From an uncultured delta proteobacterium (lineage in GTDB: Bacteria; Myxococcota_A; Polyangia; Polyangiales; Polyangiaceae): a stretch of DNA of 64,000 nt. Below the pieces are notes generated by a model that saw only the letters and a program-made list of their open reading frames with translations, was not told the origin of the DNA and did not search any database. Position numbers and translations under genes: made by a program. The DNA lies in the NCBI GenBank assembly GCA_963782055.1, contig CAWAIF010000003.1, forward strand, positions 1,248,001 through 1,312,000. The letters are read 5' to 3'. Below are positions 30,507 through 57,928 of this stretch, piece by piece (position 1 is the first letter of the stretch; the number at the start of each line of letters is the position of its first letter).

Positions 30507-31241
30507 CTACGGCGTGTGGCGCACCGCGATGGCCATCAGCGCCGCCACGCGGTCGAAGACCACGCCCGTCACCGCGAGCAGCAGCAGCGCGCGCATCGGC
30601 GCGAGCAGGGCATGGATCTGGGCGGGCGACGACGCCCGCGCGATCACGGCGCCGGCCACCTCGATGACCAGCGAGGCGGCGAGCAGTGGCCCCCCGATCG
30701 AGACCGCGAGCCCGATGCCCCCGGCGATGTCGTTCGCCGCCGAGAGCAGCGGGTGCGCGGGGAACGGCGCCACCGCCAGCGCGTGGGCGATCCGCGACGG
30801 CCCGCCCGTACCGAGAAAGATGGCGGAGGCGAGCAGCGCGAAGGGCACCCCCATCGGCGTCGTTCGCCCCTCGATGGTTGCAACCTGCACCGATTGCTGC
30901 GAGCCCCGCAGCGCGTCGAGGACGCCGCCGGTCATCGTCGCCGCCCAGAGGGGCACCGCACACGCGATCGCCACGGGCAGGCCGCGCACCAGCTCCGCCA
31001 CGAGCAGCAACGGCCACGGCGTGCCCGCGGCGGACGCCACCTCCGGGGCCAGCGCCGGGTAGATGGCTCCCGCCAGCGCCAGGGCCACCACCGCCCGCGC
31101 CGCCGCGGGGAGCGCCCGCAGCCCGAAGGCAGGCACGAGCACCACCGTCGGCGTCGCCCGCGCCCACGCCAGCCCCAGCGCAGCCAGATCCACGCCGCTC
31201 TCGCGAAACGCGGTCTCGACCTCGGTGAGCAGCCCCGGCAT
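30507..31241 (-). CDS. sctT: T3SS export apparatus protein SctT (YscT/HrcT; FliR family)
   Basis: 244-aa multi-pass membrane protein with WARATPTVVLVPAFG, AELVRG, GGVLDALRG, IFLGTGG and IARASSP motifs. Confidence 0.78.
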   Translation of the reverse strand: MPGLLTEVETAFRESGVDLAALGLAWARATPTVVLVPAFGLRALPAAARAVVALALAGAIYPALAPEVASAAGTPWPLLLVAELVRGLPVAIACAVPLWAATMTGGVLDALRGSQQSVQVATIEGRTTPMGVPFALLASAIFLGTGGPSRIAHALAVAPFPAHPLLSAANDIAGGIGLAVSIGGPLLAASLVIEVAGAVIARASSPAQIHALLAPMRALLLLAVTGVVFDRVAALMAIAVRHTP

Positions 31242-42998: not shown

Positions 42999-43008
42999 CC
43001 GCTTGCCC

Positions 43009-43722
43009 ATGCGACTGCACGTCAACGTCGACCACGTCGCGACGCTGCGTAACGCGCGCGGCACCCCCTACCCGGACCCGGTCGAGATCGCGGGCATCTG
43101 CCTCGAGGCCGGCGCCGATGGCATCACCGCGCACCTGCGTGAGGACCGCCGCCACGTCAAGGACGACGACCTGCGGCGGCTGCGCGCGCTGGTGAAGAAG
43201 ACCCTCAACATGGAGTGCGCGGCCACCGACGAGATGGTCCGCATCGCGCGAGATCTCCACCCCGACGTCGCCACCCTGGTGCCCGAGCGCCGCGAGGAGC
43301 GCACGACGGAGGGTGGGCTGGACGTGCGCGGCGGCGGCGCCGCGCTCGCCGCGCGCGTCGGCGCCCTGCGCGACGCCGGCGTCCGCGTGAGCCTCTTCAT
43401 CGCCCCCGACGAGGACACCATCCGCGCTTCGAAGAACCTCGGCGTCGCCCAGGTGGAGCTCCACACCGGCGAGTACGCCCACGCCTTCGGCGGCGCCTCG
43501 CAGGAGGCGGAGCTCCGTCGCCTCGCCGAAGGCGCGCGCCTCGCCCGCGAGCTCGGGATGGAGGTCGCCGCCGGCCACGGCCTCACCCTCGCCAACGTCC
43601 CGGCGCTGGTGCGCATCGCGGAGATCGTCGAGCTGAACATCGGCCACGCGATGATCTCCGACGCCCTCTTTCTCTCCATGGCGGGCGCGGTGCAGGCCAT
43701 GCGCCAGGCCATGACGCGCTGA
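43009..43722 (+). CDS. pdxJ: Pyridoxine 5'-phosphate synthase
   Basis: VNVDHVATLRNAR, HLREDRRH, TTEGGLD, ELHTG, AGHGL and ELNIGH. Confidence 0.97.
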   Translation: MRLHVNVDHVATLRNARGTPYPDPVEIAGICLEAGADGITAHLREDRRHVKDDDLRRLRALVKKTLNMECAATDEMVRIARDLHPDVATLVPERREERTTEGGLDVRGGGAALAARVGALRDAGVRVSLFIAPDEDTIRASKNLGVAQVELHTGEYAHAFGGASQEAELRRLAEGARLARELGMEVAAGHGLTLANVPALVRIAEIVELNIGHAMISDALFLSMAGAVQAMRQAMTR

Positions 43723-43791
43723 CCGCGCGCGCTGCCCCGCGCAAGATCCTCGCAGGCCGCACCCTCCCGCGGTGGTGCTACGCTCGCGCTC

Positions 43792-44163
43792 GTGATCGTC
43801 GGCATCGGTCTGGACGTCTGCTCCATCGAGCGCATGCGCCGCGCGCTGGAGCGCCACGGCGAGCGCTTCTACGGCCGCATCTGCAGCGCGGACGAGCGCG
43901 CCGACCTCGCCGGTCGCGACGAGGCCACCGCCCTCGCCGGCCGCTTCGCGGCGAAAGAGGCCTTCGCCAAGGCGATGGACGGCGCCCCCGGCGTCGGCTG
44001 GCACGAGGTGCAGGTGCGCCGCCTGGAGTCCGGGCGCCCGCGCCTCGACCTGCACGGCAACGCCCTCGCCATGGCCACGCGCCTGGGCGCGTCGCGCTGG
44101 CACCTCACCATCACCCACGACGCGGGCATCGCCGCCGCCGTCGTCATCCTGGAGGGCGCGTGA
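43792..44163 (+). CDS. acpS: Holo-[ACP] synthase
   Basis: GIGLD, AGRFAAKEAFAKA and ITHD. Confidence 0.95.
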   Translation: MIVGIGLDVCSIERMRRALERHGERFYGRICSADERADLAGRDEATALAGRFAAKEAFAKAMDGAPGVGWHEVQVRRLESGRPRLDLHGNALAMATRLGASRWHLTITHDAGIAAAVVILEGA

Positions 44164-45707
44164 TCCCCGTGCTCTCGCGCGAGCAGGCCCGCGCCTTCGA
44201 CGCCGAGGCCATCGAGAAGTGCGGCGTGCCGGGCCTCCTGCTGATGGAGAACGCCGGGCGCGGCGCCGCCGACGTCCTGGAGCGCGAGCTGCTCGGCGGC
44301 AGCTTGGCGGGCAAGCGCGTGCTCGTCGTGTGCGGTACCGGCAACAACGGCGGCGACGGCTTCGTCATCGCGCGCCACGCCCTGCTGCGCGGCGCGGTCG
44401 TCGACGTGCGCCTCGTCGGCGACGAGTCCCGCCTCTCCCCCGACGCCGCCACCAACGCCACCGCCTGGCGCGCCTTCGGCGGCGCGGTGCGCGCGGTCAC
44501 CGAAGCCGACGCCGACGCCCTCGGCGAGGACGCCCGGGACGCCGACGCGGTGGTGGACGCCCTCTTCGGCACCGGCCTCGACCGCCCGCTGCACGGCGTC
44601 CCGCTCGCGGTGGTGCGCGCCCTGCAGTCCCCCGGCGCGCCGGTCCTCGCCGTCGACATCCCCTCCGGCCTCCACGCCGACACCGGCGCCGTGCTGGGCG
44701 CCGTCGTCCACGCCGCGTGCACCGTCACCTTCGCGCACTACAAGCGCGGCCTGCTCACCCCCGCCGGCGCCACGTGCACCGGCGACGTCTTCGTCGTCGA
44801 CATCGGCGTCCCCGGGTGGCTCGTCGAGCGCAGCGGCCACGCCGCCTCGCTGCTCGAGCCCGCGGACATCGCCGGCTGGCTCACGCCCCGCGCCGCCGAC
44901 GCGCACAAGTACGCCGCCGGCCACGTCGGCGTCCTCGCGGGCTCGTCGGGGAAGGTGGGCGCCTCGGTGATGGTCGCCCACGCCGCCCTGCGCGCCGGCG
45001 CGGGCGCCGCCACCATCTGCACGTGGCCCACCGCCGCGAGCAGCCTGGAGGCGCGCGTGGTGGAGATCATGACCGCTCGCCTGGACGAGGCGCGCCTGCC
45101 GGAGAGCGTGGCGGAGTTCGCCGCCCGCAAGCCCGCGATGGTCGCCGGCCCCGGCTTCGGCACCGGCGATCGCGCGCGAGAGGCGGTGCTCGCGCTGCTC
45201 CTCGGCTACGACGGACCCCTCGTCCTCGACGCCGACGCCCTCTCGCTCTTCGCCGGCGCCGCGAGCGAGCTGGCGAGCGCCAGGGCGAAGCTCGTCCTCA
45301 CCCCGCACGCGGGGGAGGCGGCGCGCCTGCTCGCGACCACCTCCGAGGAGGTGGAGGCCGACCGGTTCGCCGCCGCGCACAACCTCGCCTCCGCGGCGAA
45401 GGCCGTGGTGGTGCTCAAGGGCGCGCGCACGCTCGTCACCGCGCCGGACGGACGCGTGGCGATCGTCCCGACCGGCAATCCGGCGCTGGCGACCGCGGGC
45501 GCGGGGGACGTCCTCTCCGGCACCGTCGCCGCGCTTGCATGCACCATGCAGCCGTTCGAGGCGGCGTGCGCCGGCGCCTACGTCCACGGCGCCGCGGCGG
45601 ACGCGTGGGCCGCCGCCGGCCCCGCCCCCCGCGACCGCGGTCTGCTCGCCTCGGAGGTCGCCGACCGCGTCCCGGACGTCCTGGCCGGACTCCTGGCCGG
45701 CGCCTGA
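44160..45707 (+). CDS. nnr: Bifunctional NAD(P)H-hydrate epimerase/dehydratase (YjeF)
   Basis: LMENAG, GNNGGDG, DALFGTG, DIPSG, LTPHAGE and ATAGAGDVLSG. Confidence 0.95.
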   Translation: MIPVLSREQARAFDAEAIEKCGVPGLLLMENAGRGAADVLERELLGGSLAGKRVLVVCGTGNNGGDGFVIARHALLRGAVVDVRLVGDESRLSPDAATNATAWRAFGGAVRAVTEADADALGEDARDADAVVDALFGTGLDRPLHGVPLAVVRALQSPGAPVLAVDIPSGLHADTGAVLGAVVHAACTVTFAHYKRGLLTPAGATCTGDVFVVDIGVPGWLVERSGHAASLLEPADIAGWLTPRAADAHKYAAGHVGVLAGSSGKVGASVMVAHAALRAGAGAATICTWPTAASSLEARVVEIMTARLDEARLPESVAEFAARKPAMVAGPGFGTGDRAREAVLALLLGYDGPLVLDADALSLFAGAASELASARAKLVLTPHAGEAARLLATTSEEVEADRFAAAHNLASAAKAVVVLKGARTLVTAPDGRVAIVPTGNPALATAGAGDVLSGTVAALACTMQPFEAACAGAYVHGAAADAWAAAGPAPRDRGLLASEVADRVPDVLAGLLAGA

Positions 45708-45911
45708 GGTCGGGGCGGAGGCCGACCGACAGCCCGGTGGGCGTGGACGGAGGTCGGGCATCGCCTCCGGCCCGTCGACGCCCTCGTCGGACTGCGAGCA
45801 TGCTTGCGCTCCGACGCCCGGGTGTCTCCTCCCGCCCACGCCCAGCGGGAGAGCGGACACGAGCTCCCGCACCGAGCCCAATGATTTCAACTGGTTGTGT
45901 GCGCGCGAGCC

Positions 45912-45927
45912 CGGCACTCCCTGTGCT
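45912..45927 (+). promoter_or_regulatory. sigma54-like promoter of the ECF sigma gene
   Basis: CGGCACTCCCTGTGCT, GG-N10-GC, preceded by an AT-rich tract (ATGATTTCAACTGGTT). Confidence 0.5.
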
Positions 45928-45952
45928 CTACCCCACCGCGGAGGTTCACCGG

Positions 45953-46495
45953 ATGTCGCCGTCTCGCTCTCGCCAGCCGCTCGTCGCTCACGATGCCCCG
46001 GGCCTCGCCGCCGGGCTCGTCACCCTCATCCCCGACCTGCGCGCCCGCGCGCTGCGCCTCACCGCGTGCGAGGCGACCGCCGACGATCTGGTGCAGGACA
46101 CCGTCGAGCGGGCCCTCCGCTTCTCCGGGCAGTATGCGCTCGGCACCAACCTGCGTGCCTGGGCGCAGCAGATCCTCTTCAGCGTCTTCGTCACCCGGTA
46201 CCGCCGCGTGCGCCGCGAGAAGAACGCGCTCAAGAACCTGACGTTCGATCCCAACGCGTGGACGGGCGAGGACCGCTTCGCCCCGCCGGACGCGCACGCC
46301 GCGCTGACGCGACGCACGCAGGCGAAGCTCGACGCGCTCCCCGGTGGCTTCCGCGCCGTCGTCGAGATGGTCGACCTGCAGCAGCACAGCTACCGCGAGG
46401 CCGCGGAGCGCCTGGGCGTGCCCGTAGGCACCGTCATGAGCCGCCTGCACCGCGGCCGCAAGATGCTCGCCGAGCAGCTCGCGTCCGCCGCCTGA
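45953..46495 (+). CDS. ECF RNA polymerase sigma factor
   Basis: ADDLVQDT region 2 and SYREAAERLGVPVGTVMSRLHRGR region 4. GGAGG RBS. Confidence 0.92.
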   Translation: MSPSRSRQPLVAHDAPGLAAGLVTLIPDLRARALRLTACEATADDLVQDTVERALRFSGQYALGTNLRAWAQQILFSVFVTRYRRVRREKNALKNLTFDPNAWTGEDRFAPPDAHAALTRRTQAKLDALPGGFRAVVEMVDLQQHSYREAAERLGVPVGTVMSRLHRGRKMLAEQLASAA

Positions 46496-46516
46496 CCGCG
46501 AGCTTGCTCGCGGTCA
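46493..46516. terminator. Inverted repeat spanning both convergent stop codons
   Basis: TGACCGCGAGC-TT-GCTCGCGGTCA. Confidence 0.45.
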
Positions 46517-47080
46517 CTTCGCCGCGCGAGGCGTCCAGGGCACGTCGGGTACGCCGCGCGCGTGGTTCTCCACCCGGGCGAGCACGAACAGCAGATCGCT
46601 CAGCCGGTTCAGGTAGATGACCAGCTCCGCGCGCGCGGCCTCCGCGGCGCTCGCCTCCCCCAGCGCCAGCACCGCCCGCTCCGCCCGCCGGCACACCGTG
46701 CGCGCGTGGTGCAGCGCCGCCCCCTGGGGGGACCCGCCGGGCAGCACGAAGGTCTTCAGCGTCTCCAGCCCAGCCTCCCCCTCGTCGATGGCGCGCTCCA
46801 GCCGCTCGGCGTCGGCGGGCGCGAGGCGCGTCATCGGCAGCTTGTCCTCCTTGCCCGGCGCCGTGGCCAGCTCCGCGCCCAGCGCGAAGAGGTCCACCTG
46901 CGCCTCGCCGAGCACCCGCTCCGCCAGCGGCCCGAGCCCGAGGGCGCGCGCCACACCGAGCACCGCGTTGAGCTCGTCGACCGTCCCGTACGCCTCGACG
47001 CGCGCGGACGCCTTCGGCACGCGCGCCCCGCCGAAGAGCCCGGTCGTCCCGTCGTCACCCGTCTTCGTGTAGATCTTCAT
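46514..47080 (-). CDS. pduO: ATP:cob(I)alamin adenosyltransferase, PduO type
   Basis: MKIYTKTGDDGTT, YGTVDELN, RTVCRRAER and YLNRLSDLLF. Confidence 0.95.
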   Translation of the reverse strand: MKIYTKTGDDGTTGLFGGARVPKASARVEAYGTVDELNAVLGVARALGLGPLAERVLGEAQVDLFALGAELATAPGKEDKLPMTRLAPADAERLERAIDEGEAGLETLKTFVLPGGSPQGAALHHARTVCRRAERAVLALGEASAAEAARAELVIYLNRLSDLLFVLARVENHARGVPDVPWTPRAAK

Positions 47081-47183
47081 CGTCCGCGCCAGTCTGGCAC
47101 GGCGAGGGAGAAAAATGGCGGTCGGCTGCAACCGGCCGGGCCACGCGGTCGATGGGGTTCCAGTTCAAGTCAAGGAGCCCACG

Positions 47184-47384
47184 ATGAGCACCCTCTCCCA
47201 GCTCAAGAAGCAGATCGAACAACAGGACGCCCAGATCGAGGCGCTCACGGCCTTCGTGCGCGACCGCAACCTGCGCCTTCCCGCCGAGATGGTGGAGGAG
47301 CTCAACGAGGCCATCGACGCCATCCCCGACGCGCCTGCGGCGGCCAAGGCCCCCATCCCCGTTCCCACCGGCATTCGTGCCTGA
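47184..47384 (+). CDS. Small coiled-coil protein, first gene of the putative translocon operon
   Basis: AAGGAG RBS, 66 aa, helical N-terminal half and Pro-rich tail ending GIRA. Confidence 0.7.
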   Translation: MSTLSQLKKQIEQQDAQIEALTAFVRDRNLRLPAEMVEELNEAIDAIPDAPAAAKAPIPVPTGIRA

Positions 47385-47397
47385 AAGAGAGACTCCC

Positions 47398-48036
47398 ATG
47401 TCAGTCGCCCCCCCCCAACCCGCGCCTTCCGCTCACCCTGCCTCGGCTCCCGCGGACTTCATCGACGACGACTTCTTCACCGCCTGGTGCCAGACTCGAC
47501 TGCTCAGCATGGACTCCCAGATCCGCAGCTTCATGGACGGCCAAAAGGCACTTCAGGACAAGCAGAACCAACTCAACGAACTCAAGAACATGTTCAACAA
47601 CGCCGCGGGGCACGCACCAAAGGACGGGTACGACAAGGGCAGTGCCGAAGGCCTCAAGGCCTATCAAGACCTGGCAAACCAGATCGAGGAGTACGAGAAG
47701 GCGCACAACCTCTCGCCGGACGTGAAGGACCAGTTCGACCAGGCGAAGGCCAGCGTCCAGAGCTGGTATCCGCCGAAGAAGGACGACCAGGGCAACGTGG
47801 TGCGGGATGACGACAAGAAGGTGGTATACGACAACCAGTACGTCAATGCCGACAACATCAAGGCTCTCGGGGAAGGGCTGCAGTCCAGCATCGACAGCTA
47901 CCAGAACGAGGCGAGCATGGACATGCTCCGCATGAACTCGTGCGTCAGCAAGCGCGAGCAAGCGGTTCAGCTCACCAGCAACATGCTCAAGAAGCTCGAT
48001 GACACGGTCTCGGCCGCCATCGCCAACATCAGGTGA
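47398..48036 (+). CDS. Putative T3SS tip/filament protein (SctA; Bsp22/EspA-like)
   Basis: Pro/Ser/Ala-rich N-terminus, coiled coil, and C-terminal SMDMLRMNSCVSKREQAVQLTSNMLKKLDDTVSAAIANIR resembling tip-filament C-terminal helices. Confidence 0.7.
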   Translation: MSVAPPQPAPSAHPASAPADFIDDDFFTAWCQTRLLSMDSQIRSFMDGQKALQDKQNQLNELKNMFNNAAGHAPKDGYDKGSAEGLKAYQDLANQIEEYEKAHNLSPDVKDQFDQAKASVQSWYPPKKDDQGNVVRDDDKKVVYDNQYVNADNIKALGEGLQSSIDSYQNEASMDMLRMNSCVSKREQAVQLTSNMLKKLDDTVSAAIANIR

Positions 48037-48043
48037 GCCCGCC

Positions 48044-49048
48044 ATGAAGATCCAATCCTTCGTCCCGCAACCCACCTGGCTCGAAGGCCCTGACGGGGCG
48101 GGGCCGGCCAGCTCGGGCGACGACGACATCGGTTCCATCTCGCTCGACGACGCGATGACCGTGCTCGTCGGCATGGTCGACAAGCAGTCCTCCGACCAGG
48201 CGCGCAACGCCCAGAAGCAGGCGGCCGGGATGGCCAGCCTGCGCAAGGGGATGACCAAGCGCATCCAGGAAGCCCTCGAGGAGAAGCTCAAGAACGAGGG
48301 CGGCAAGGGCATCTTCGATTCCGTCAGCGATCTGGTGACGGACGTCACCAAGGATCTCTTCACCGGCCACATCGCCGACGCCTTCAACGACTGCGGCGGC
48401 GATCTCGACAAGATGGTCAACAGCCCCAAGTTCTGGGGCGACGTGAAGCAGATCGCGATGGCGGTCGCCGAGGCGGCGGCCACCATCGGGTCCATCGCGT
48501 CCTTCGGGACGGCGAGCGCGGGGGCCGCGGCGCTCATCGCGGTCGGGATCGCCATGTCGGCCACTGGCTTCGCCGAGAGCAACTTCCAGGTGCTCGAGAA
48601 GATGGGCGCCGACCCCGAGGTCGCCAAGTGGGTGGGCGTCGGTGTCGCCATCGGCGGCGCCGCATGCTCGTGCGGCGCAGGACTCGTCAACGCGGGCACC
48701 GCGGCCGGGTCGGCCGCCGACGCGGCGACGCAGGGCACGGACGCGGCGGCGCAGGCGAGCTCCACCGCCTCCCGGGTCGGCGGCGCCATGTCGGCTGTCG
48801 GCGGGGGCGCGTCGATCGTGGGCGGGGGCGCCGGCATCGCAACGTCGGTCTTCGCGTACGACGCCACGCAGGCCGAGATCGCTGCGGAGAAGGCGCGCCA
48901 GCACTCGGCGTTCATCGAGCGCCTCGCAGAAGCGATCGTGGCCGACCTGAAGGCGGACGAGAAGCGCAACGAGAAGGACCGTCAGACGGCGGTCAAGGGT
49001 GTCGAGGCCTCCAACCAGACGCAGCTCGCTGCAGTCATGAGGGTATGA
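48044..49048 (+). CDS. Putative major hydrophobic T3SS translocator (SctE; YopB/IpaB/BopB-like)
   Basis: N-terminal coiled coil, KGIFDS motif, long Gly/Ala-rich hydrophobic segments and C-terminal amphipathic coiled coil. No Sec signal. Confidence 0.7.
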   Translation: MKIQSFVPQPTWLEGPDGAGPASSGDDDIGSISLDDAMTVLVGMVDKQSSDQARNAQKQAAGMASLRKGMTKRIQEALEEKLKNEGGKGIFDSVSDLVTDVTKDLFTGHIADAFNDCGGDLDKMVNSPKFWGDVKQIAMAVAEAAATIGSIASFGTASAGAAALIAVGIAMSATGFAESNFQVLEKMGADPEVAKWVGVGVAIGGAACSCGAGLVNAGTAAGSAADAATQGTDAAAQASSTASRVGGAMSAVGGGASIVGGGAGIATSVFAYDATQAEIAAEKARQHSAFIERLAEAIVADLKADEKRNEKDRQTAVKGVEASNQTQLAAVMRV

Positions 49049-49755
49049 ACATGAAGATCCAACCCAACCTGACCTCCGTGCAGTTCACGGGTGTCGAGGA
49101 CACGGCGACCGAGGTGGCGATGCTGGCCCTGAAGATGGGCACCGACGCCAAGCACAACGCCGAGCAGGAGCGCGACGCCGAGGAGCGGCTTCAGGCCGCC
49201 GCGGAGCACAACCAGCTCCAGGCGATGCAGGACAAGGCGACGACCGCGCTCGTCGGAGGCATCGCGAGCGGTACGCTCTCGATGGCGAGCGGCGCGATGC
49301 AGGTCGCCTCTGCGTCGGCCAATCCGAAGGCCGTGATTCGGGAGCGCCAGGGGCGCCTCTCCGACACCGAGAAGTCGCAGGTGATCGCCAAGGCGGAGAC
49401 GACTCGTGGCCAGTGCCTCACGGATGCCGCCAAGGCGGACGTGCTGGCAAGGGCTTCCGCGGACAAAGCGGCGCGGGCGAGCGTCGCCGGCTCGTCGGAG
49501 GTGCTCGGCGCCGAGGCGTCCACGCTGCAGGCGGGGAGCAAGCTGGTCGACGGTGTCTCGAACGGCGTGCAGCAGTACTTCGACGCCGACGCTCAGCGGG
49601 CCGAGACGCAGGCCCACAGCGCCTCACGCGAGGTGGACAAGGCGAACGACGAGGTGCACGGCGCGCAGTCGCTCGTCGATCAGTCGATCGAGGCGGCTCG
49701 CGAGGTGCAGAACACCAACAACGAGGTGTTGCTGCTCACCGCGCGAATGGCGTGA
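49045..49755 (+). CDS. Putative minor T3SS translocator (SctB; YopD/IpaC/BopD-like)
   Basis: ATGA overlap (alternative start 49051), coiled coil, single hydrophobic segment ALVGGIASGTLSMASGAM and C-terminal amphipathic helix. Confidence 0.65.
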   Translation: MNMKIQPNLTSVQFTGVEDTATEVAMLALKMGTDAKHNAEQERDAEERLQAAAEHNQLQAMQDKATTALVGGIASGTLSMASGAMQVASASANPKAVIRERQGRLSDTEKSQVIAKAETTRGQCLTDAAKADVLARASADKAARASVAGSSEVLGAEASTLQAGSKLVDGVSNGVQQYFDADAQRAETQAHSASREVDKANDEVHGAQSLVDQSIEAAREVQNTNNEVLLLTARMA

Positions 49756-49758
49756 GCC

Positions 49759-50547
49759 TCACGCGCGGAAGATGCCCGCGACCTCTTCCGCCAGGGCCTG
49801 CTCGGTCACCTTCTTCGCGAAGGCGAGCTCCTTCATCAGCAGGCTCTTCGCGCGGTCCAGCAGGTGGCGCTCGCCGAAGGAGAGGTCCTTGTCGAACTTG
49901 AGGCGGTGCATGTCGCGCAGGACCTTGGCCACCTCGTGCGGGGAGCCGCTCTGCACCATCTCGGTGTAGGCGCGGAAGCGGCGGCTCCACGGCTGCAGGT
50001 CCACCGCCACCTCGCGCGCGCGCATGGTCGCGAGGACGGCGTCGGCCTCCTTGGAGCTCATGATGCCGCGCAGGCCCGCCTGGCTGGCGGCGTTGGTCGG
50101 GACCATGACCTTCATCCCGTTGTCCAGGATGCGCAGGACGTAGAACATGCCCTTCGTCCCGCCGAGCTCGCGGTGCTCGATGGCGGTGACCTCGCCCACG
50201 CCGTGCTTCGGGTGGACGGCCTTGTCGCCGATCTTGAAGTTCACCTTGCGGGCGGGCGGCATCGGGGGAGCGGGCGGGAGGACCGAGCCATTCCGCACGG
50301 GGGCCATGATGACGGGCGCGGGCGCGGGCGGGGGCTTGGAAGCCACGGCGGTGCGCGCCGCCGTCTTGGGGCGACCGGCGGGGGGCGTGGAGACGGGCCG
50401 GCGCGCCGGGGAGGCCGGGCGGCTGACGGCGTGGACGTTGGCGCTCTTGGGGGCGGCCTTGCGGGTGGCCTTGGCGGGGGTGGCGGTGGGGCGCGTGGTG
50501 CGCGCGCGGGCGGCGGTGCGGGCGGAAATTCGGGGCATGTTGCTCAT
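49759..50547 (-). CDS. CarD/CdnL-family transcription factor with basic N-terminal extension
   Basis: FKIGDKAVHPKHGVGEV, KVMVP, WSRRFR and LSFGERHLLDRAKSLL. Confidence 0.9.
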   Translation of the reverse strand: MSNMPRISARTAARARTTRPTATPAKATRKAAPKSANVHAVSRPASPARRPVSTPPAGRPKTAARTAVASKPPPAPAPVIMAPVRNGSVLPPAPPMPPARKVNFKIGDKAVHPKHGVGEVTAIEHRELGGTKGMFYVLRILDNGMKVMVPTNAASQAGLRGIMSSKEADAVLATMRAREVAVDLQPWSRRFRAYTEMVQSGSPHEVAKVLRDMHRLKFDKDLSFGERHLLDRAKSLLMKELAFAKKVTEQALAEEVAGIFRA

Positions 50548-50642
50548 GGGGTGAGGGCCACTCGTTAGGGGCGAACGACCGGTCTGACGAGCCCTGGACG
50601 GGCTCGGGGGGCAGGATGGTCTGCCTTCCAACGGGGGGGGCT

Positions 50643-50672
50643 CCCCTAACATTCCCGGGCCATACCCGTCAA
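50643..50672 (-). promoter_or_regulatory. sigma70/SigA-like promoter of the CarD-family gene
   Basis: TTGACG-N18-TAGGGG on the minus strand. Confidence 0.45.
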
Positions 50673-53566: not shown

Positions 53567-53595
53567 AAAATGAGGCAAATCGCGGATTAGGTCAA
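53567..53595 (-). promoter_or_regulatory. sigma70-like promoter of ihfB
   Basis: TTGACC-N17-CATTTT on the minus strand. Confidence 0.5.
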
Positions 53596-55673
53596 CGGGG
53601 ACCGATCGGGCGCAGGACCGTGCGGTCGAGCGCCACCGGAGCGCCCTGGGCGCCCAGCTCGAAGGGCAGGTCACGCGGCGGGAGGGTGACCTCGCGGGGA
53701 GGGAGGTCGAGGCAGGTGCCGGCGGGGCCGTCGTCCACCCACGACCAGCGGGCCAGGTCCTCCGTTCCAGCGTAAATCCTGGCGGATCCGCGGCCGTGGG
53801 TGTTCTGCAGCCACACGCGCGGGGTGACGAGGAAGCGGCCGTGGTGAGGGGAGGGGAGGGCGATGGTGACCGTGCCGGGGTGGGCTCCGGCGGGCATGAC
53901 GGTCAGCGCCTGGCCCCCGGAGACGCAGGTGCCGGCGGCCCAGGTGGGCTCGGCCCACGCACCCTGCTGGGCGAGGGGGGGCCAGTCGCTCTCGGCCTCG
54001 AAGCGCCACTGCTCGTAGCCGAGGTTGTCCGTCGCCGCGGGCGGCACGAAGGGCAGCAGCGTCACCACGCCATCGCCGTAGCGGTAGGCGCTCGTCGGGG
54101 GCTCGCCGAGGCGGTCGTAGACGAGACGATCGTGGTCGTCGTGGTGCAGGCGGGCGACGACGAGCCCCTCGGTCGGGCGGGCCTCCGGGTCGTGCGCGAG
54201 ATCGAAGCCGTGATCGGTGTCGACGAAGAGCAGGCCGTGATCGACGTGGTGCTCGGCGAGACGCTCAGGTTCGAACATGGGCCGGCCGCCCTCGCGCGAG
54301 GCCAGCGCGAGGTGCCCGAAGGCGGCGTGCAGGGCGAAGCCGGCGCACGCCAGGCCGAGCAGCGCGCCGAGCTTGCGCGCGAGCGCCACGCGGGGGAGCC
54401 ACGCGACGAGCGCCACCGCGAGGAGGGCGTGCTCGACGGGCAGCACGTCGGCGTAGAAGCGCGCGCCGCCGCCGGGATAGTCGCCGTCGAAGTAGAAGGG
54501 CGCGTAGGCGAGGATCTGCAGGCCGACGAGGGCGAAGGCGACGCGGGCGACCGGCCGCGCGCGGACCTCGTGCACGAGGGCGGGCAGCGCGAGCAGGAGC
54601 ACCGGCCACGCGTTGAGGGCGTCGGAGACGTGAAGGTGAAGGCGGCGCGCGGTGGTGCCGATCGCCGCGACGAGGCCGTAGCCGTGCTGCAGGTGCGCGC
54701 GCACGAAGTCGCCGTGCTCGTGGAGGCACCCGACGCCGGCGCCGAAGCCGTAGCGGAAGCAGCCGGGCGGGCCGTCGGAGACGGCGTAGTAGGCGCGCTG
54801 GGTGGAGGCGAGCCAGTGGCCGGTGCCGAGGTGCTGCGCCTGCAGGAGCAGCGCGAGGCCGGGCAGGGCGGCGGCGACGAGGCGCGGAGTGGCGCGTCGC
54901 AGATCGCTCCGGGCGAGCCATCCGACGCACGCGCCGATGGGGAGCGCGGAGGCGGGGCGCGTGGCGGCCACGTACCCGACGGCGAGGCCGGCGAGAAGCC
55001 ACGGGCGCGTCGCGCCGGTGCGGCGCGCACGGAGGGCGGCGACGAGCGCGACGACCACGCCGAGGGCGGCGGCGCCGTGCGACATGGTGTCGGCCGTGTG
55101 GTAGCGGAGCGCGCCACACACGACCGAGAGGAGCACCGCGCCGCGCGCGGCGAGCTCGCGGTCCGGCTCCGGCAGGCCGTGGCCCAGCTCCCGCGCGAGC
55201 GCCCACGTCGCCACGACGAGCGCGGCGGCGAGCACCGGACCGACCACCATGGGCGCGCCCACGAGGAAGCCGGCGGCGAGCAGGAGCGGGTAGCCGGGCG
55301 GGAAGATGCCGGCCATCACGCCGTCGTGGAAGAGCAGGAAGCGGCCGCGGAAGCTGGCGCTCGGCGTGGGCACCGCCCAGGCGAGTCGCCCGTGGGAGAG
55401 GGCGCGCCCCTGCAGGTAGTAGGCAGTCGCGTCGACGATGCGGGGGCCGCCGTGCAGGTAGTGGTCGACGTAGAGCAGCGACAGGAGGGTCGCGGCGATC
55501 GCGGCGCCCGCGACGAAGCGGCGAGATGGTTGACGCATCAACGAATCGCGCAGCGCGGCCGGAAAGAGCGCCGCGGCCGCGAGCAGGAGTACGCCCAGGA
55601 CCAGCGCCGCCCACGCCGCGCCGTCGGGCGGCGCGCCCCACGGCCCCATCAGCTTCAGCAGCGCGTGTCCCAC
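53592..55673 (-). CDS. GT-C fold (PMT-like) membrane glycosyltransferase
   Basis: Multi-TM. IVDATAYYLQGR and FPPGYPLLLA motifs, GGGARFY and a C-terminal periplasmic domain. Start GTG 55673 or ATG 55649. Confidence 0.65.
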   Translation of the reverse strand: MGHALLKLMGPWGAPPDGAAWAALVLGVLLLAAAALFPAALRDSLMRQPSRRFVAGAAIAATLLSLLYVDHYLHGGPRIVDATAYYLQGRALSHGRLAWAVPTPSASFRGRFLLFHDGVMAGIFPPGYPLLLAAGFLVGAPMVVGPVLAAALVVATWALARELGHGLPEPDRELAARGAVLLSVVCGALRYHTADTMSHGAAALGVVVALVAALRARRTGATRPWLLAGLAVGYVAATRPASALPIGACVGWLARSDLRRATPRLVAAALPGLALLLQAQHLGTGHWLASTQRAYYAVSDGPPGCFRYGFGAGVGCLHEHGDFVRAHLQHGYGLVAAIGTTARRLHLHVSDALNAWPVLLLALPALVHEVRARPVARVAFALVGLQILAYAPFYFDGDYPGGGARFYADVLPVEHALLAVALVAWLPRVALARKLGALLGLACAGFALHAAFGHLALASREGGRPMFEPERLAEHHVDHGLLFVDTDHGFDLAHDPEARPTEGLVVARLHHDDHDRLVYDRLGEPPTSAYRYGDGVVTLLPFVPPAATDNLGYEQWRFEAESDWPPLAQQGAWAEPTWAAGTCVSGGQALTVMPAGAHPGTVTIALPSPHHGRFLVTPRVWLQNTHGRGSARIYAGTEDLARWSWVDDGPAGTCLDLPPREVTLPPRDLPFELGAQGAPVALDRTVLRPIGPR

Positions 55674-57928
55674 TACTGCGCCACCCACACGTGGTAGTCG
55701 AGGAAATCGCCCGGGCCGTCGTTCTGGAGGCGCAGGTCCATCGAGGAGCGCACGGCGCTCGCCGGGATGGTCAGCGTCTTCTCGACCCAGCCGTCGGCGG
55801 CCGTGAAGTCCAGCGCGCCGACGACCTGCCCGCCGGCCAGGACGCGCACGTGCGCCGGCACGTTCGGTGCCGAGCGAACGATCAGCGTCGCGGCGGCGCC
55901 CGGCCGCAGGTGACCGAGGCGCATCGACTCCCCGCGTCCTCCGGAGATGCGGCGGCCGGCGTCGAAGAAGTCCTGCGTGGCGTCCGCGGGGTCCTGGAGG
56001 ATCTTCATCTCCGTCCATCCGCCGGCGGGGTGGGGGAAGACGTAGCGGTGCTCGCGCTCGCTCACCAGGTCGGCGACGTCCACCGAGTCGACGACGCGCC
56101 CCGACAGCGCCGCGCGCGGCCTGTCCCCCTTGCCGAGCGGGCTCCAGTCGGCGGTGTAGAGCACGTCCTCGTAGCCGCCGCAGATGACGTTGCCGTGCGC
56201 CGGGACGCGGGCGACGACGTCGTGAGCGAACCACGTCGGGAGCACGCCCCACCACGACGGGTAGATGGCGAACATGTCGGGGCGGTCTGCCGGCGGCATC
56301 CGCTCGATGAGCTCGATGGACGCCGGGAGGCCCTGCACGCCCGCGCGCGCGAAGGGCAGGTCGTGGTAGCCGCCGAGGCCGATGATGTCGAGGCCGGGGC
56401 GGCCGGAGGCGTACATGAGCGCGCCGGCGTCGCCCACCAGCACGCGGTGCGGGTGGAGCTGGGCGAGCATGCGCCCCGCGACGATGTGCTGATCGCGGAT
56501 GTTGCGGCACGCGCGGCCGAAGAACCACTTCTGGTCGCGCATCTTGCTCACCTGGTGGTCGTGCGCGAGGAAGAGCGCGGCGGCGACGGCGAGCGCGCGC
56601 GCGGGCCAGAAGCGCAGCACCAGGGCGACGCCCAGCCCCGCGCCCGCGGCGTACGCGAGCGGCACGCGCAGCGACGGCATGGTCCCGGCGGGGCGCGTGA
56701 CGATGCCCACCAGCTCCACCGCCGCGGTGCCAGCGAGCAGGCCGAAGACCACGCTCGGGCGGCCGAGTCGGCGGAGCATGGCGGCGGCGCCGAGGGCGGC
56801 GAGGGTGAGCAGCCACGCGACCGCGGGCATGGTGTAGCGCTCGTTCTGCCAGCGCACCTGTCCGTTGAAGGCGACGAGCAGCAGCCAGCCGGCGATCTGC
56901 AGCCAGAGCAGCACGCCCACGCGGCGCGTGGCGGGGACGGCGAGCGCGGCGAGCGCGAGCGCGGGCACCAGGAACCCGAGCGCGGGCGCGTCGGTGAAGT
57001 GGTACTCGACGTTGCGCAGCACCGTGTAGGTCAGGTTGAAGGTGTAGTCGGCGAGCTTCTCGCGCGGCAGCATGAAGGGGTTGTTGAGCGCCAGCTTCAC
57101 GATGGCGCCGTTGGCGCTGTACTCGCCGGTGAAGGCGCGGTTGGCGAGCGTCTGCAGCACGAGGAAGGCGACGCCCGGCGCCCCGACGCGCAGGAGCATC
57201 GCTGCGCGCTCGCTCGCGCGGAGCCGGTCCTTGCGCCAGAACGCTGCCACCAGGCCAAAGACGGCGACCGTCGTCGCCGCCTCGGGGCGCGTGGCGACGA
57301 GCAGCAGGCACCACGCGCCGAGCGCCCACGCGCGGCCGCGCAGCTCCCGGCCGCGCGCGTCGTCCAGGGCGAAGAAGGCGAGCAGCGCGCATGCCCACAC
57401 GCCCAGGAAGAACGCCACCTCCATGCCGCTCCAGAGCGACCAGTCCAGCGCGCCCAGGCCGAGCAGGACCGGAGGCAGGAGGTAGGAGAGCCAGCGCATC
57501 CCCTCGCCGCGGCCCGAGGCGCTGCGCAGGAAGAGGGAGCGTCCGGCGAGCAGGGTGCCGAAGGTGCACACCATCGCCAGGAGCGCGGCCCACTTCATCA
57601 GGGCGAGATCGTGGAAGCCGAGGACGTAGCCGAGCGCGAGGACGAAGGGGTAGGTGACGCTGGTGTTGCCGGAGGAGTAGCCGTTTCCGGCGACCCACTC
57701 GAAGGGGTGGCCCTGGGCGATCGCGCGGGCGTAGTCGAAGTGGATGAAGACGTCGTCGAGCGGCGCCGACCACTCGCCGCCGGTCTGCTTCATCATGAAG
57801 CCGTAGAAGAGCCGCGCGGAGGCGAGCGTGCAGTACGCCGCCCACAGCGCGTAGAGCGCGGGGTCCACACGCCGGAGCGCGAGCTCCAGCCTCTTCGCGT
57901 GGCCGGCGAGCCCGGCAGGTCGCAGCAC
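55673..57928 (-). CDS. GT-C fold membrane glycosyltransferase
   Basis: LDDVFIHFDYAR, SGNTS, SGMEV, TRPE, ERY and GDAGAL..LDIIGL motifs. Multi-TM. Confidence 0.7.
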   Translation of the reverse strand: MLRPAGLAGHAKRLELALRRVDPALYALWAAYCTLASARLFYGFMMKQTGGEWSAPLDDVFIHFDYARAIAQGHPFEWVAGNGYSSGNTSVTYPFVLALGYVLGFHDLALMKWAALLAMVCTFGTLLAGRSLFLRSASGRGEGMRWLSYLLPPVLLGLGALDWSLWSGMEVAFFLGVWACALLAFFALDDARGRELRGRAWALGAWCLLLVATRPEAATTVAVFGLVAAFWRKDRLRASERAAMLLRVGAPGVAFLVLQTLANRAFTGEYSANGAIVKLALNNPFMLPREKLADYTFNLTYTVLRNVEYHFTDAPALGFLVPALALAALAVPATRRVGVLLWLQIAGWLLLVAFNGQVRWQNERYTMPAVAWLLTLAALGAAAMLRRLGRPSVVFGLLAGTAAVELVGIVTRPAGTMPSLRVPLAYAAGAGLGVALVLRFWPARALAVAAALFLAHDHQVSKMRDQKWFFGRACRNIRDQHIVAGRMLAQLHPHRVLVGDAGALMYASGRPGLDIIGLGGYHDLPFARAGVQGLPASIELIERMPPADRPDMFAIYPSWWGVLPTWFAHDVVARVPAHGNVICGGYEDVLYTADWSPLGKGDRPRAALSGRVVDSVDVADLVSEREHRYVFPHPAGGWTEMKILQDPADATQDFFDAGRRISGGRGESMRLGHLRPGAAATLIVRSAPNVPAHVRVLAGGQVVGALDFTAADGWVEKTLTIPASAVRSSMDLRLQNDGPGDFLDYHVWVAQ

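Follow-up and report, generated by a model that had tools for sequence, protein, structure and literature searches.

Does a four-gene operon in an uncultured Polyangiaceae-type bacterium encode the tip and translocon of a T3SS (type III secretion system), and if so, which machine would it serve? In the available sections of PMC3459982, the myxobacterial T3SS is described as being without tip and translocon and is cited as the earliest-branching non-flagellar T3SS, one that is without secretin, needle, tip and translocon, and it is on this description that the idea of the translocon as a late acquisition rests; the authors add there that, evolution being rapid, homologues "may have been missed". 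The genes considered here lie in a window, by which I mean the whole stretch of 64,000 nucleotides that was analysed, and are given below together with their immediate flanks.

46514-47131, - strand: PduO-type cobalamin adenosyltransferase, the flank on the ORF1 side
47132-47183, no strand: intergenic region between the divergent pduO (-) and ORF1 (+), presumed from its position to hold the operon promoter
47184-47384, + strand: ORF1, 66 aa, a small helical protein
47398-48036, + strand: ORF2, 212 aa, proposed SctA-like tip/filament axial protein of an unnamed family
48044-49048, + strand: ORF3, 334 aa, divergent major translocator SctE (SseC/YopB/AopB family)
49045-49755, + strand: ORF4, 236 aa, probable divergent minor translocator SctB (YopD/SseD-like)
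49759-50652, - strand: CarD-family gene, the flank on the ORF4 side

A first-pass annotation, made from the letters of the window, had described four tightly spaced co-directional ORFs between pduO and a CarD-family gene, and they are found there at exactly 47184-49755, all on the + strand, with 13 nt between ORF1 and ORF2, 7 nt between ORF2 and ORF3, and an overlap of the ORF3 stop with the ORF4 start in the sequence ATGA. An AAGGAG-like ribosome-binding site lies upstream of the ORF1 ATG, and a sigma-70 consensus scan over 46400-50000 returned 0 sites. The codon-position GC of all four ORFs follows the pattern of real genes here (GC3 0.86-0.92, with GC2 lowest), and a codon-usage model trained on the same genome picks each of them (36 for ORF1, 114 for ORF2, 160 for ORF3 and 110 for ORF4); the antisense ORFs at 47401-48969 (-) and 48982-49617 (-), with inconsistent GC3, were set aside as artefacts. 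The lower GC that had been noted is also real, at 0.60-0.67 over 47200-48600 versus 0.73-0.79 over 43000-47000, and the C-terminal peptide that had been quoted for ORF2 is present at its end. Similarly, a hydropathy scan agrees with the earlier statements that the proteins carry no Sec signal (an N-terminal hydrophobic stretch in 0/4) and that ORF3 has Gly/Ala hydrophobic segments and ORF4 a single one, while a myxobacterial origin agrees with homologues whose source is named as "Polyangiaceae bacterium". On its own sequence, none of the four window proteins passes a curated family cut-off in Pfam or NCBIfam, and source databases label the operon proteins only as "hypothetical protein".

The identification of the translocators must therefore be sought at the level of families. 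ORF3 by itself matches nothing in Pfam, PF04888 (SseC) included, and a PF04888 scan of the genome places nothing at ORF3, its best E value of 0.147 lying elsewhere. However, the ORF3 family comprises 1390 representatives at E<=0.001, and 78 of 150 aligned members match SseC, the best at 8.7e-29; the family profile finds AopB (3wxx_B) as its best PDB sequence match at 3.3e-8 over profile positions 17-205; and an HMM built from 20 SseC-positive members, with the window sequence excluded, gives 5.4e-52 for ORF3, any other match in the genome being no better than 0.077. Among the SseC-positive relatives, the two nearest to ORF3 fall short of the cut-off as well (E 3e-4 and 4e-3). ORF3 also has the pattern of an SctE protein, with two central, uncharged, Gly/Ala-rich hydrophobic runs (residues 144-177 and 196-225, followed by a weaker third at 245-272) in helical surroundings; its AF2 model is all-helical and, at pLDDT 39, unusable for fold comparison. 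These family-level profiles establish ORF3 as a homologue of the SctE family, although a very divergent one, which is what the first-pass annotation had proposed.

ORF4, which had been named SctB, is likewise upheld. It has no match in Pfam, but NCBIfam NF038055 (T3SS_SctB) finds it at E 0.0065 over residues 25-202 (16 bits versus a cut-off of 37) and finds nothing else in the genome, and the same model matches 5 of 8 genus-level homologues, that is ORF4 and 4 of its 7 relatives, all sub-threshold and the best at 3.1e-5. The SseD model weakly matches two of these eight, and among 51 wider homologues Pfam YopD (PF05844) matches six (best 2e-5) and SctB2 (PF05802) one. All of these SctB-type matches are below curated cut-offs, and they are consistent, with the top-ranked family being of this type each time; an HMM of seven YopD/SctB2-positive homologues then reaches ORF4 at 2.7e-16. 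The protein has one uncharged hydrophobic run (63-92) and its gene directly follows sctE, as is the case for SctB, an order that is also seen in relatives. By profile comparison, ORF4 is probably a homologue, if a divergent one, of the SctB family.

ORF2 had been called the tip protein, and here the outcome is divided. What stands is its gene position upstream of the translocator genes, where a tip or filament gene sits, the predicted architecture of an axial protein, a C-terminus that is needle-like in relatives, and ORF1 as a predicted partner of the cap kind; what does not stand is membership of the LcrV, EspA or IpaD families by sequence, since LcrV (PF04792), EspA (PF03433) and IpaD/SipD give no match to ORF2 and tip/filament families are absent among the 25 Pfam families listed for 120 of its relatives. 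The AF2 model (pLDDT 76.5) has helices at 24-71, 83-103, 107-123 and 151-211, the long N- and C-terminal ones (24-71 and 151-211) being those that give the predicted axial architecture. Within a family of 241 homologues, Pfam T3SS_needle_F (PF09392) matches the C-terminal ~55 residues in 6 of 120 aligned relatives, the best at 2.3e-4 and 21.7 bits, below the cut-off of 29.4; the TIGR02105 needle model matches one of eight genus-level homologues at E 0.16, and neither model matches the window ORF2 itself. The nearest named Atlas clusters are one with EspA in 12% of its members (score 0.96) and a second with LcrV in 12% of its members (score 0.92).

In structure, the ORF2 model comes closest to the D1 cores of flagellins (Z 10.8-9.7, with 160-173 residues aligned, the top match having Z 10.8 and an rmsd of 3.3 A over 170 residues), and IpaD reaches Z 8.4, all of these values lying in a range where helical matches can be generic. 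Flagellins occupy ranks 1-11 in one structure search, and flagellar proteins nine of the ten top rows in another. The first-pass annotation had counted flagellin-like matches against its own reading, and such matches did appear for ORF2, in structure only; they are not taken here as a refutation, because neither flagellar rod/hook genes nor flagellin genes occur in the genome (the rod/hook family Flg_bb_rod is found in 0/7 genus genomes, and Flagellin_N has 0 matches in this genome) and because flagellins, hook-associated proteins, needles and tips alike belong to the axial substrates that type III export handles. ORF2 as a flagellin proper was considered and rejected, there being no Flagellin_N sequence match and no flagellar rod/hook genes, with a likeness that is structural only. 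On this predicted fold and its gene neighbourhood, I propose for ORF2 the role of an axial protein of the tip or filament kind.

Directly upstream of ORF2 in relatives, as here, sits a homologue of ORF1 of 61-64 aa, and ORF1 belongs to no family in Pfam, NCBIfam or Atlas. The predicted ORF1-ORF2 complex has a score of 0.61 (median of three runs) versus 0.02 for the best control, with at least 60% of contacts agreeing between runs and a partner pLDDT of at least 69; the mark used for this score is reached by 116 of 157 solved complexes and by 2 of 215 mismatched pairs. The predicted contact sites on ORF2, residues 176-201 and 20-49, are conserved helices. I therefore propose, on the strength of a modelled interface, that ORF1 may be ORF2's own chaperone or cap, in the manner of LcrG, SseA or CesA.

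Relatives of this genome carry a fuller version of the operon in the same pduO-CarD slot, namely ORF1, ORF2, a TPR protein of 111-145 aa, ORF3 and ORF4. LcrH/SycD is the top NCBIfam match of this TPR protein in 4/4 tested, at 1e-8 to 1e-10 and over nearly the full length, a call that is only moderately specific because the LcrH/SycD model also catches ordinary TPR proteins (67 stretches at E<=0.1 in this genome, the best at 1.2e-6, and matches in 14/14 control genomes). A chaperone HMM matches in 22 of 30 loci examined and in none of the other eight, some of which come from other families. The window operon has no TPR class II chaperone, and an orthologue was not found elsewhere in the genome (tblastn E 0.13 at best); set beside 5 of 7 genus-level loci, its cassette is inverted and the chaperone absent, and a second species of the genus has the same chaperone-less arrangement. 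An N-terminal proline-containing motif, common to ORF3 and ORF4 of the chaperone-bearing genus relatives, is missing in both window proteins. The order of the operon is kept across many families of the class: of 20 more loci, taken from other families, 16 have the ORF2 family beside that of ORF3 and 14 have it beside that of ORF4. A T3SS-like gene lies within 10 kb of the operon in only one of these 20 distant loci. One relative has, within 3 kb after the operon, an SctI-like gene and a small FlhB-C-terminal-like gene, and beside the SctI-like gene and the operon a 167-aa protein whose C-terminus, judged by eye, looks needle-like.

The operon had been described as stand-alone, and so it is, every T3SS core gene found in this genome likewise sitting apart. 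The check for core genes elsewhere in the genome, for which the first-pass annotation had also asked, returned intact sctV, sctU, sctR, sctT, sctJ, sctN and sctQ, all above curated cut-offs in a profile search, with those examined being scattered, each alone or as a pair, and sctR accompanied by a FliO-like gene. One of them falls in the window.

30507-31241, - strand: sctT, an export-apparatus gene (Bac_export_1), PF01311, 62.7 bits versus a cut-off of 27.8, E 1.2e-16

The PF01311 match itself covers C3:1278534-1279184 (window 30534-31184), and the gene stands alone, 16 kb upstream of the operon. These scattered core genes, sctT included, are presumably what the operon depends on. No YscC-type secretin exceeds its cut-off in the genome (best 121.6 bits versus 238.45), although three secretin-family genes are present; nor is there a confident needle (SctF), the only needle-family match, with PF09392 at E 0.033, being a 110-aa SctI-like ORF. 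Across the class, an SctE-like gene was found in at least 32 of 301 sampled genomes, in many families; sctV is present in all 32 of these genomes, the SctE-like gene is found in 0 of 33 sctV-negative genomes, and in one family of 18 genomes both genes occur in the same four. This co-occurrence is weak evidence, because sctV is present in 268 of the 301 and related genomes are not independent.

I consider it quite probable that the locus is an operon for "middle substrates" of type III secretion that has diverged strongly, with ORF1 as partner, ORF2 as axial protein, ORF3 as SctE and ORF4 as SctB. In such an operon, ORF1 would shield the conserved C-terminal and N-terminal helices of ORF2 and so keep it in the cytoplasm, such helices being those that axial proteins use to polymerise; a non-flagellar T3SS with dispersed core genes would export ORF2 to the distal end of the apparatus, ORF3 and ORF4 would be exported next, and their Gly/Ala-rich hydrophobic helices would insert into the target-cell membrane to form a pore. 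That a scattered-gene T3SS does the exporting, that ORF2 acts as tip and ORF1 as chaperone, and that a pore forms is inferred, as is the kind of target cell. The reading of an alpha-helical pore-forming toxin of several components (ClyA/Hbl/AhlABC-like), which would be independent of a T3SS, leave the cell through lysis or by another route and assemble into a pore on target membranes, would account for a set of helical proteins whose coiled coils surround hydrophobic Gly/Ala-rich heads and for the absence of an adjacent T3SS core gene, and the ORF3 family profile does meet haemolysin BL component L1, at a non-significant E of 0.76; yet it is very improbable, given that all significant family links are to T3SS translocators (SseC, AopB, YopD, SctB), that relatives carry a SycD-like chaperone in the operon, that no member has an N-terminal hydrophobic signal and that the gene set is confined to sctV-positive genomes among the 301 sampled. 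I regard as equally remote the thought that this copy is a decaying relic, non-functional here and functional in relatives, for which the inversion, the lost chaperone and the missing proline-containing motif of ORF3 and ORF4 could be called upon, because none of the four frames is broken, their codon statistics resemble those of genes and their starts are coupled, metagenome proteins are 86% identical to ORF3 and 91% to ORF4, and the chaperone-less arrangement recurs both in the second species of the genus and in other families.

A less remote but still distinctly unlikely alternative to the middle-substrate operon of an injectisome is that these are true translocon homologues in a machine of another kind, a needle-less, secretin-less T3SS like the T3SS* of M. 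xanthus, acting in one version as a short-range device on bacterial prey envelopes at cell contact and in another being kept for some other surface function, with no effector delivery into eukaryotic cells. The want of a YscC-type secretin over the cut-off and of a confident SctF speaks for it, as do the scattered core genes and the class II chaperone lost from the operon here, and it agrees with the accounts, in the available parts of PMC3459982, PMC12075869 and PMC10196010, of a myxobacterial T3SS without secretin, needle, tip and translocon and of contact-dependent predation. Against this, an SctI-like gene exists, one relative has the 167-aa protein whose C-terminus looks needle-like beside its SctI-like gene and operon, and the three secretin-family genes could have been recruited. 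Also, translocators and a tip-like protein have no known role in the absence of a conduit to the target membrane. Going beyond the middle-substrate operon itself, one may tentatively, and with more doubt than belief, suppose that Polyangiaceae-type myxobacteria run a working contact-dependent injection system with fully dispersed genes and a flagellin-D1-like ORF2 as a distal piece with a needle-like C-terminus, directed at soil eukaryotes (amoebae, fungi) or bacterial prey. If this were true, the ORF2 family would be an intermediate, still living, between filament or hook-associated proteins of flagella on one side and injectisome tips or filaments on the other, and the translocon would be older and wider in myxobacteria than the Myxococcus-based "needle-less, translocon-less" picture.

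Among known systems, the Salmonella SPI-2 translocon operon has the order sseA-sseB-sscA-sseC-sseD, an order shared by the relatives' operon, where a small helical chaperone is followed by an EspA-like axial protein, a TPR class II chaperone, SctE and SctB. The Pfam SseC family, which is the one matched by the 78 ORF3 relatives, has SseC as its founding member, while SseD and SctB2 are weakly matched by relatives of ORF4; unlike SPI-2, the window proteins fall below curated cut-offs, ORF2 has no EspA/SseB match, the window copy has no TPR chaperone and the operon lies outside any T3SS island. The Ysc family follows the same five-gene logic (lcrGVH-yopBD, pcrGVH-popBD, acrGVH-aopBD), and it is from this family that AopB comes as the best PDB match of the ORF3 profile, LcrH/SycD as the top match for the relatives' TPR gene and YopD as the top Pfam family for ORF4 relatives; however, ORF2 is not LcrV by sequence (the Atlas lead alone points there) and its predicted fold is nearest to flagellin D1, and ORF1 has no detectable similarity to any family. 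The flagellin/hook-associated D0/D1 core provides the nearest structures to the ORF2 model, and unlike in flagellins, the 25 families that Pfam lists for those 120 relatives of ORF2 do not include Flagellin_N.

The M. xanthus T3SS* or "Myxo" NF-T3SS is alike in being a non-flagellar T3SS of a non-flagellated myxobacterium, in which, as here, no type III secretin or clear needle is detected. M. xanthus and its close relatives (Cystobacterineae) have clustered T3SS loci, whereas this lineage, which is Polyangiaceae-like and not Cystobacterineae, has dispersed core genes and a translocon operon; core genes that are singly scattered would cause cluster-dependent tools to miss the system, and a comparative study reports, in its available part, T3SS mainly in the order Myxococcales (PMC10196010). 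The significance is that a recognisable, very diverged translocon operon is present in a class whose T3SS were thought to lack a translocon, providing concrete genes for testing whether predatory or cellulolytic soil myxobacteria inject other cells, and in ORF2 a new axial-protein family for the study of tip and filament evolution. As the first-pass annotation had supposed, the system may inject prey or eukaryotes. The T3SS genes of Chlamydia still form a few multi-gene clusters, unlike those here, where each examined core gene is alone or paired. The likeness to Chlamydiales is that T3SS genes are dispersed and the translocon is encoded apart from the core, the available sections of PMC3459982 describing their T3SS as distributed among several loci, where the genes of the translocon and those of the core are separate.

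The four co-directional genes in the slot between the PduO-type adenosyltransferase gene (pduO) and a CarD-family gene are, judged from their sequences, a T3SS tip-plus-translocon operon, as the first-pass annotation had proposed: the homology of ORF3 is firm and that of ORF4 probable, the roles given to ORF1 and ORF2 are inferred, and export, pore formation and target are putative.

Genes of the cassette (window coordinates)
47184-47384, + strand: ORF1, 66 aa, small helical protein; AAGGAG ahead of the start
47398-48036, + strand: ORF2, 212 aa, tip or filament candidate
48044-49048, + strand: ORF3, 334 aa, SctE-like
49045-49755, + strand: ORF4, 236 aa, SctB-like; its ATG overlaps the ORF3 TGA

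A six-frame listing returns these four + strand ORFs where they had been placed from the sequence alone; boundaries were set by start-codon inspection, and 47398 is a likelier start for ORF2 than the alternative at 47509 because the conserved N-terminal motif in the family alignment falls upstream of the latter. At the 72-78% GC of this genome long ORFs often arise spuriously, and the locus has two such on its antisense strand; the frames of the four + strand genes show the expected pattern (GC3 0.86-0.92, GC2 lowest), the codon-position GC pattern of the antisense frame changes midway, and the four + strand ORFs are also the choice of a codon log-odds model, for which 233 long ORFs from the window's genome served as training set. 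The lower GC of the cassette that had been remarked on is real (0.60-0.67 versus 0.73-0.79 in the flanks), and the flanks are as described, with pdxJ, acpS, an NnrD/E fusion, an ECF sigma factor and the PduO-type adenosyltransferase on one side and the CarD-family gene, tyrS and an HU gene on the other. Scans of the operon region for promoters (no promoter-like sites) and terminators (four terminator-like sites, all on the - strand; expectation 2.3) were uninformative. The ECF sigma factor gene (45899-46495, +) lies just past pduO, a position kept across the genus.

Scanned directly against Pfam and NCBIfam, the four proteins reach no cut-off and have no Pfam family, PDB searches with single sequences gave nothing significant, nor did PDB searches of ORF3 and ORF4 with small alignments, and the sole hint from the window proteins alone was a 16-bit match of ORF4 to NCBIfam T3SS_SctB (cut-off 37 bits). 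It is at the level of the family that ORF3 becomes recognizable. A word-based homologue search found three proteins, ORF3 included, which reflects an insensitive search and not a rare family, and when 12 ORF3 homologues were used as seed of an exhaustive profile search, 1390 cluster representatives came up at E≤0.001, 114 of them at E≤1e-30. Pfam SseC, to which SseC, YopB and EspD belong, is matched by 78 of 150 aligned members (best E 8.7e-29; the runner-up family by 24). Searched against all PDB sequences, the profile of these 150 members scores best with AopB, the major translocator of Aeromonas (3.3e-8; runner-up 4e-4). As a control for circularity, an HMM was built from 20 SseC-positive family members with the window sequence left out; its match to ORF3 spans positions 22-293 of 295 at E 5.4e-52, with the next match in the window's genome reaching only 0.077, and ORF3 as a single sequence matches all 20 SseC-positive members (E 5.7e-47 to 3.7e-4). 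The SseC matches, the AopB match and the control HMM together make the homology firm: ORF3 is a diverged SctE, the role first proposed for it. Modelled with AF2 on 12 aligned sequences, ORF3 gave a pLDDT of 39.2, unfit for a fold search.

The proposal that ORF4 is the SctB stands as probable but not as proven homology, because every family match lies under the curated cut-off of the model concerned: the SctB model is matched by five of eight genus-level homologues (best E 3.1e-5, model positions 84-310 of 313) and the SseD model by two of the eight, and among 51 wider homologues the top Pfam family is YopD (6/51, best 2e-5), with SctB2 matched by one. A profile from the seven YopD- or SctB2-positive homologues matches ORF4 at 2.7e-16. 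ORF3 carries two strong uncharged hydrophobic runs and one weaker, and ORF4 carries one, a pattern that fits the SctE and SctB assignments.

The AF2 model of ORF2 (pLDDT 76.5) consists of an N-terminal helix of 48 residues and a C-terminal helix of 61 residues, with two short helices and a small beta element between them, and Foldseek found no match for it in the PDB at E≤0.001. VIA-align was run against about 48,000 PDB representatives and a second time on Foldseek's top 976 chains; the top ten rows of the first run include seven flagellins, FliD and a flagellar chaperone (Z 10.4-9.3), and on the 976 chains ranks 1-11 are all flagellins (Z 10.8-9.7, 160-173 aligned residues, rmsd 3.1-3.8 Å), with IpaD at Z 8.4 and the IpaB coiled coil at Z 8.9. 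Since helical models can reach Z values in this range through arrangement alone, the flagellin match is a resemblance and not a family assignment, and the absence of EspA, LcrV and Bsp22 from the top 50 of both runs does not exclude them. The last approximately 55 residues match the T3SS needle family in 6 of 120 ORF2 relatives, below the cut-off, and in a protein-language-model search the clusters closest to ORF2 are unnamed ones, followed by clusters with EspA or LcrV in 12% of their members.

A flagellar part was considered for ORF2 and is ruled out, since the flagellar rod/hook family was found in none of the seven genus genomes and no flagellin N domain was found in the window's genome. 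Within the genus, Flagellin_N is matched only by two fragments on a short stretch of the sister species G006 (contig C14:919-1222; genome completeness 84%, contamination 3%), which may be contamination. For the N-terminal motif of the ORF2 family the PDB entry closest in sequence is 5l1a_A, an "uncharacterized protein" of 111 residues, which two family profiles match through this conserved motif at E 0.002 and 0.017; a full-text literature search for the code 5l1a found no paper.

Complex prediction places ORF1 along residues 176-201 and 20-49 of ORF2, the former being the most conserved stretch of the family, with a score of 0.61 (median of three runs) versus 0.02 for the best control, agreement between runs in at least 60% of contacts and a partner pLDDT of at least 69. 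The mark applied is passed by 116 of 157 solved complexes as against 2 of 215 mismatched pairs, rates that are approximate here, where own alignments were used, and the pass may mirror a similar complex already solved, if one exists. Small chaperones of needle, filament, tip and flagellin subunits cover polymerising helices, and ORF1 is predicted to cover the helices of ORF2 likewise. It is well motivated to infer that ORF2 is a tip or filament protein and ORF1 its cap.

The pduO-CarD slot holds homologues of ORF2, ORF3 and ORF4, in the same order, in the genus's six other species and in part of the family's genomes, where they are 22-41% identical to the window proteins and the flanking proteins 51-95%; translocon proteins evolve fast. 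Most relatives carry a TPR protein of 111-145 aa between ORF2 and ORF3, and its top NCBIfam match is the LcrH/SycD class II chaperone in all four tested (3.2e-8 to 1.1e-10, about 100 of 136 model positions). This model is poorly specific, with 67 TPR matches in the window's genome at E≤0.1 (best 1.2e-6) and matches in all 14 control genomes, so the chaperone call relies on score, size and position jointly. An ORF1 homologue of 61-64 aa precedes ORF2 in relatives, and the ancestral layout was thus small helical protein, axial protein, TPR chaperone, SctE and SctB, an order like that of sseA-sseB-sscA-sseC-sseD and lcrG-lcrV-lcrH-yopB-yopD. The module recurs elsewhere in the class: 20 further loci from other families have an ORF2-family gene as neighbour in 16 cases and an ORF4-family gene in 14. 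A CarD-family gene adjoins the operon at 7 of 20 loci in other genera and families (L076, L077, L078, L080, L082, L087, L088), which indicates that this neighbourhood is old.

Five other species of the genus (L012, L013, L014, L017, L011) have the cassette co-directional, CarD to pduO, with the TPR gene included; in the window and in G006 it is inverted relative to both flanks and the TPR gene is absent, a change that combines inversion with chaperone loss. No orthologue of the relatives' chaperone was found elsewhere in the window's genome. Both translocators of the chaperone-bearing genus relatives have a proline-containing motif, x-L-M-P-x-P, near the N-terminus (genus alignments A2 and A3), and it is missing from ORF3 and ORF4 of the window and from both G006 counterparts. 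This could be a chaperone-binding motif, and outside the genus a regular expression for the N-terminal proline motif showed no correlation with chaperone presence.

The T3SS core genes of the window's genome are dispersed over contigs C3 and C2, each alone among unrelated genes according to Pfam annotation of about 100 neighbouring genes, the searches having covered sctV, U, R, T, J, N and Q, secretin and needle.

T3SS core genes of the window's genome (G000), all above the curated cut-off and intact
C3, 3.07 Mb: sctV
C3, 4.93 Mb: sctU
C3, 6.39 Mb: fliO-like gene and sctR
C3, 3.77 Mb: sctJ
C3, 5.67 Mb: sctN
C2: sctQ
window 30507-31241, - strand: sctT (PF01311, 62.7 bits), solitary among unrelated genes 16 kb upstream of the operon

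It is unlikely that the cassette is a dead relic, and unlikely too that it encodes a pore-forming toxin independent of a T3SS. The main rival is that the proteins are homologous to a translocon but the machine is not an injectisome, its support being that the searches turned up neither a type III secretin nor a confident needle: the only needle-family match in the window's genome is a 110-aa SctI-like ORF (E 0.033), and its three secretin-family genes include no YscC-type secretin above cut-off. In one relative, G287, four genes follow the operon within 3 kb (L085 11167-13825): one for a TPR lipoprotein, one for a 167-aa protein, an SctI-like gene (1e-24 to the window genome's copy) and a small FlhB-C-terminal-like ORF; homologues of these genes are scattered in the window's genome, e.g. 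at C2:196118-196621 (-) and C3:1857696-1858028 (+). The 167-aa protein is Gly/Ala-rich with a conserved C-terminus that looks needle-like and is a candidate needle or ruler protein; the copy at C2:196118-196621 has no PDB sequence link and is not picked up by the ORF2-family HMM at E≤1.

The SctE-like gene is present in at least 32 of 301 sampled genomes of the class and sctV in 268; all 32 SctE-like genomes are sctV-positive, none of the 33 sctV-negative genomes has an SctE-like gene, and in one family both genes occur in the same 4 of 18 genomes. Such co-occurrence is weakly consistent with the translocon reading, because sctV is very common and related genomes are not independent. Two other families (G067 C33 and G102 C6) have a solitary sctV on the operon's contig at a distance of about 20 kb, with no other core gene detected between the two.

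Myxobacterial T3SS are described as degenerate or needle-less and lacking a translocon (PMC3459982, PMC12075869), and PMC3459982 adds that rapid evolution may have caused translocon homologues to be overlooked. PMC10196010 and PMC11509652 mention sctV and sctR for Polyangia, and no translocon. Among open-access papers and preprints the literature search brought up none that describes a Polyangia translocon. The type of system is already known and the lineage is new for it, as are the full dispersal of its genes, the variant without a chaperone and the unnamed families to which ORF1 and ORF2 belong.

The sctV gene (C3:3066401-3068383, -) matches FHIPEP in two stretches, profile positions 1-398 and 454-656, and this split suggests that an insertion separates the membrane domain from the cytoplasmic domain; adjoining sctV on the opposite strand are three small ORFs that have no Pfam match. 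Within the window, two large genes without a Pfam family (53592-55688, -, and 55673-57928, -; about 700 and 750 aa) are conserved and keep their synteny throughout the genus, with 48-62% identity.
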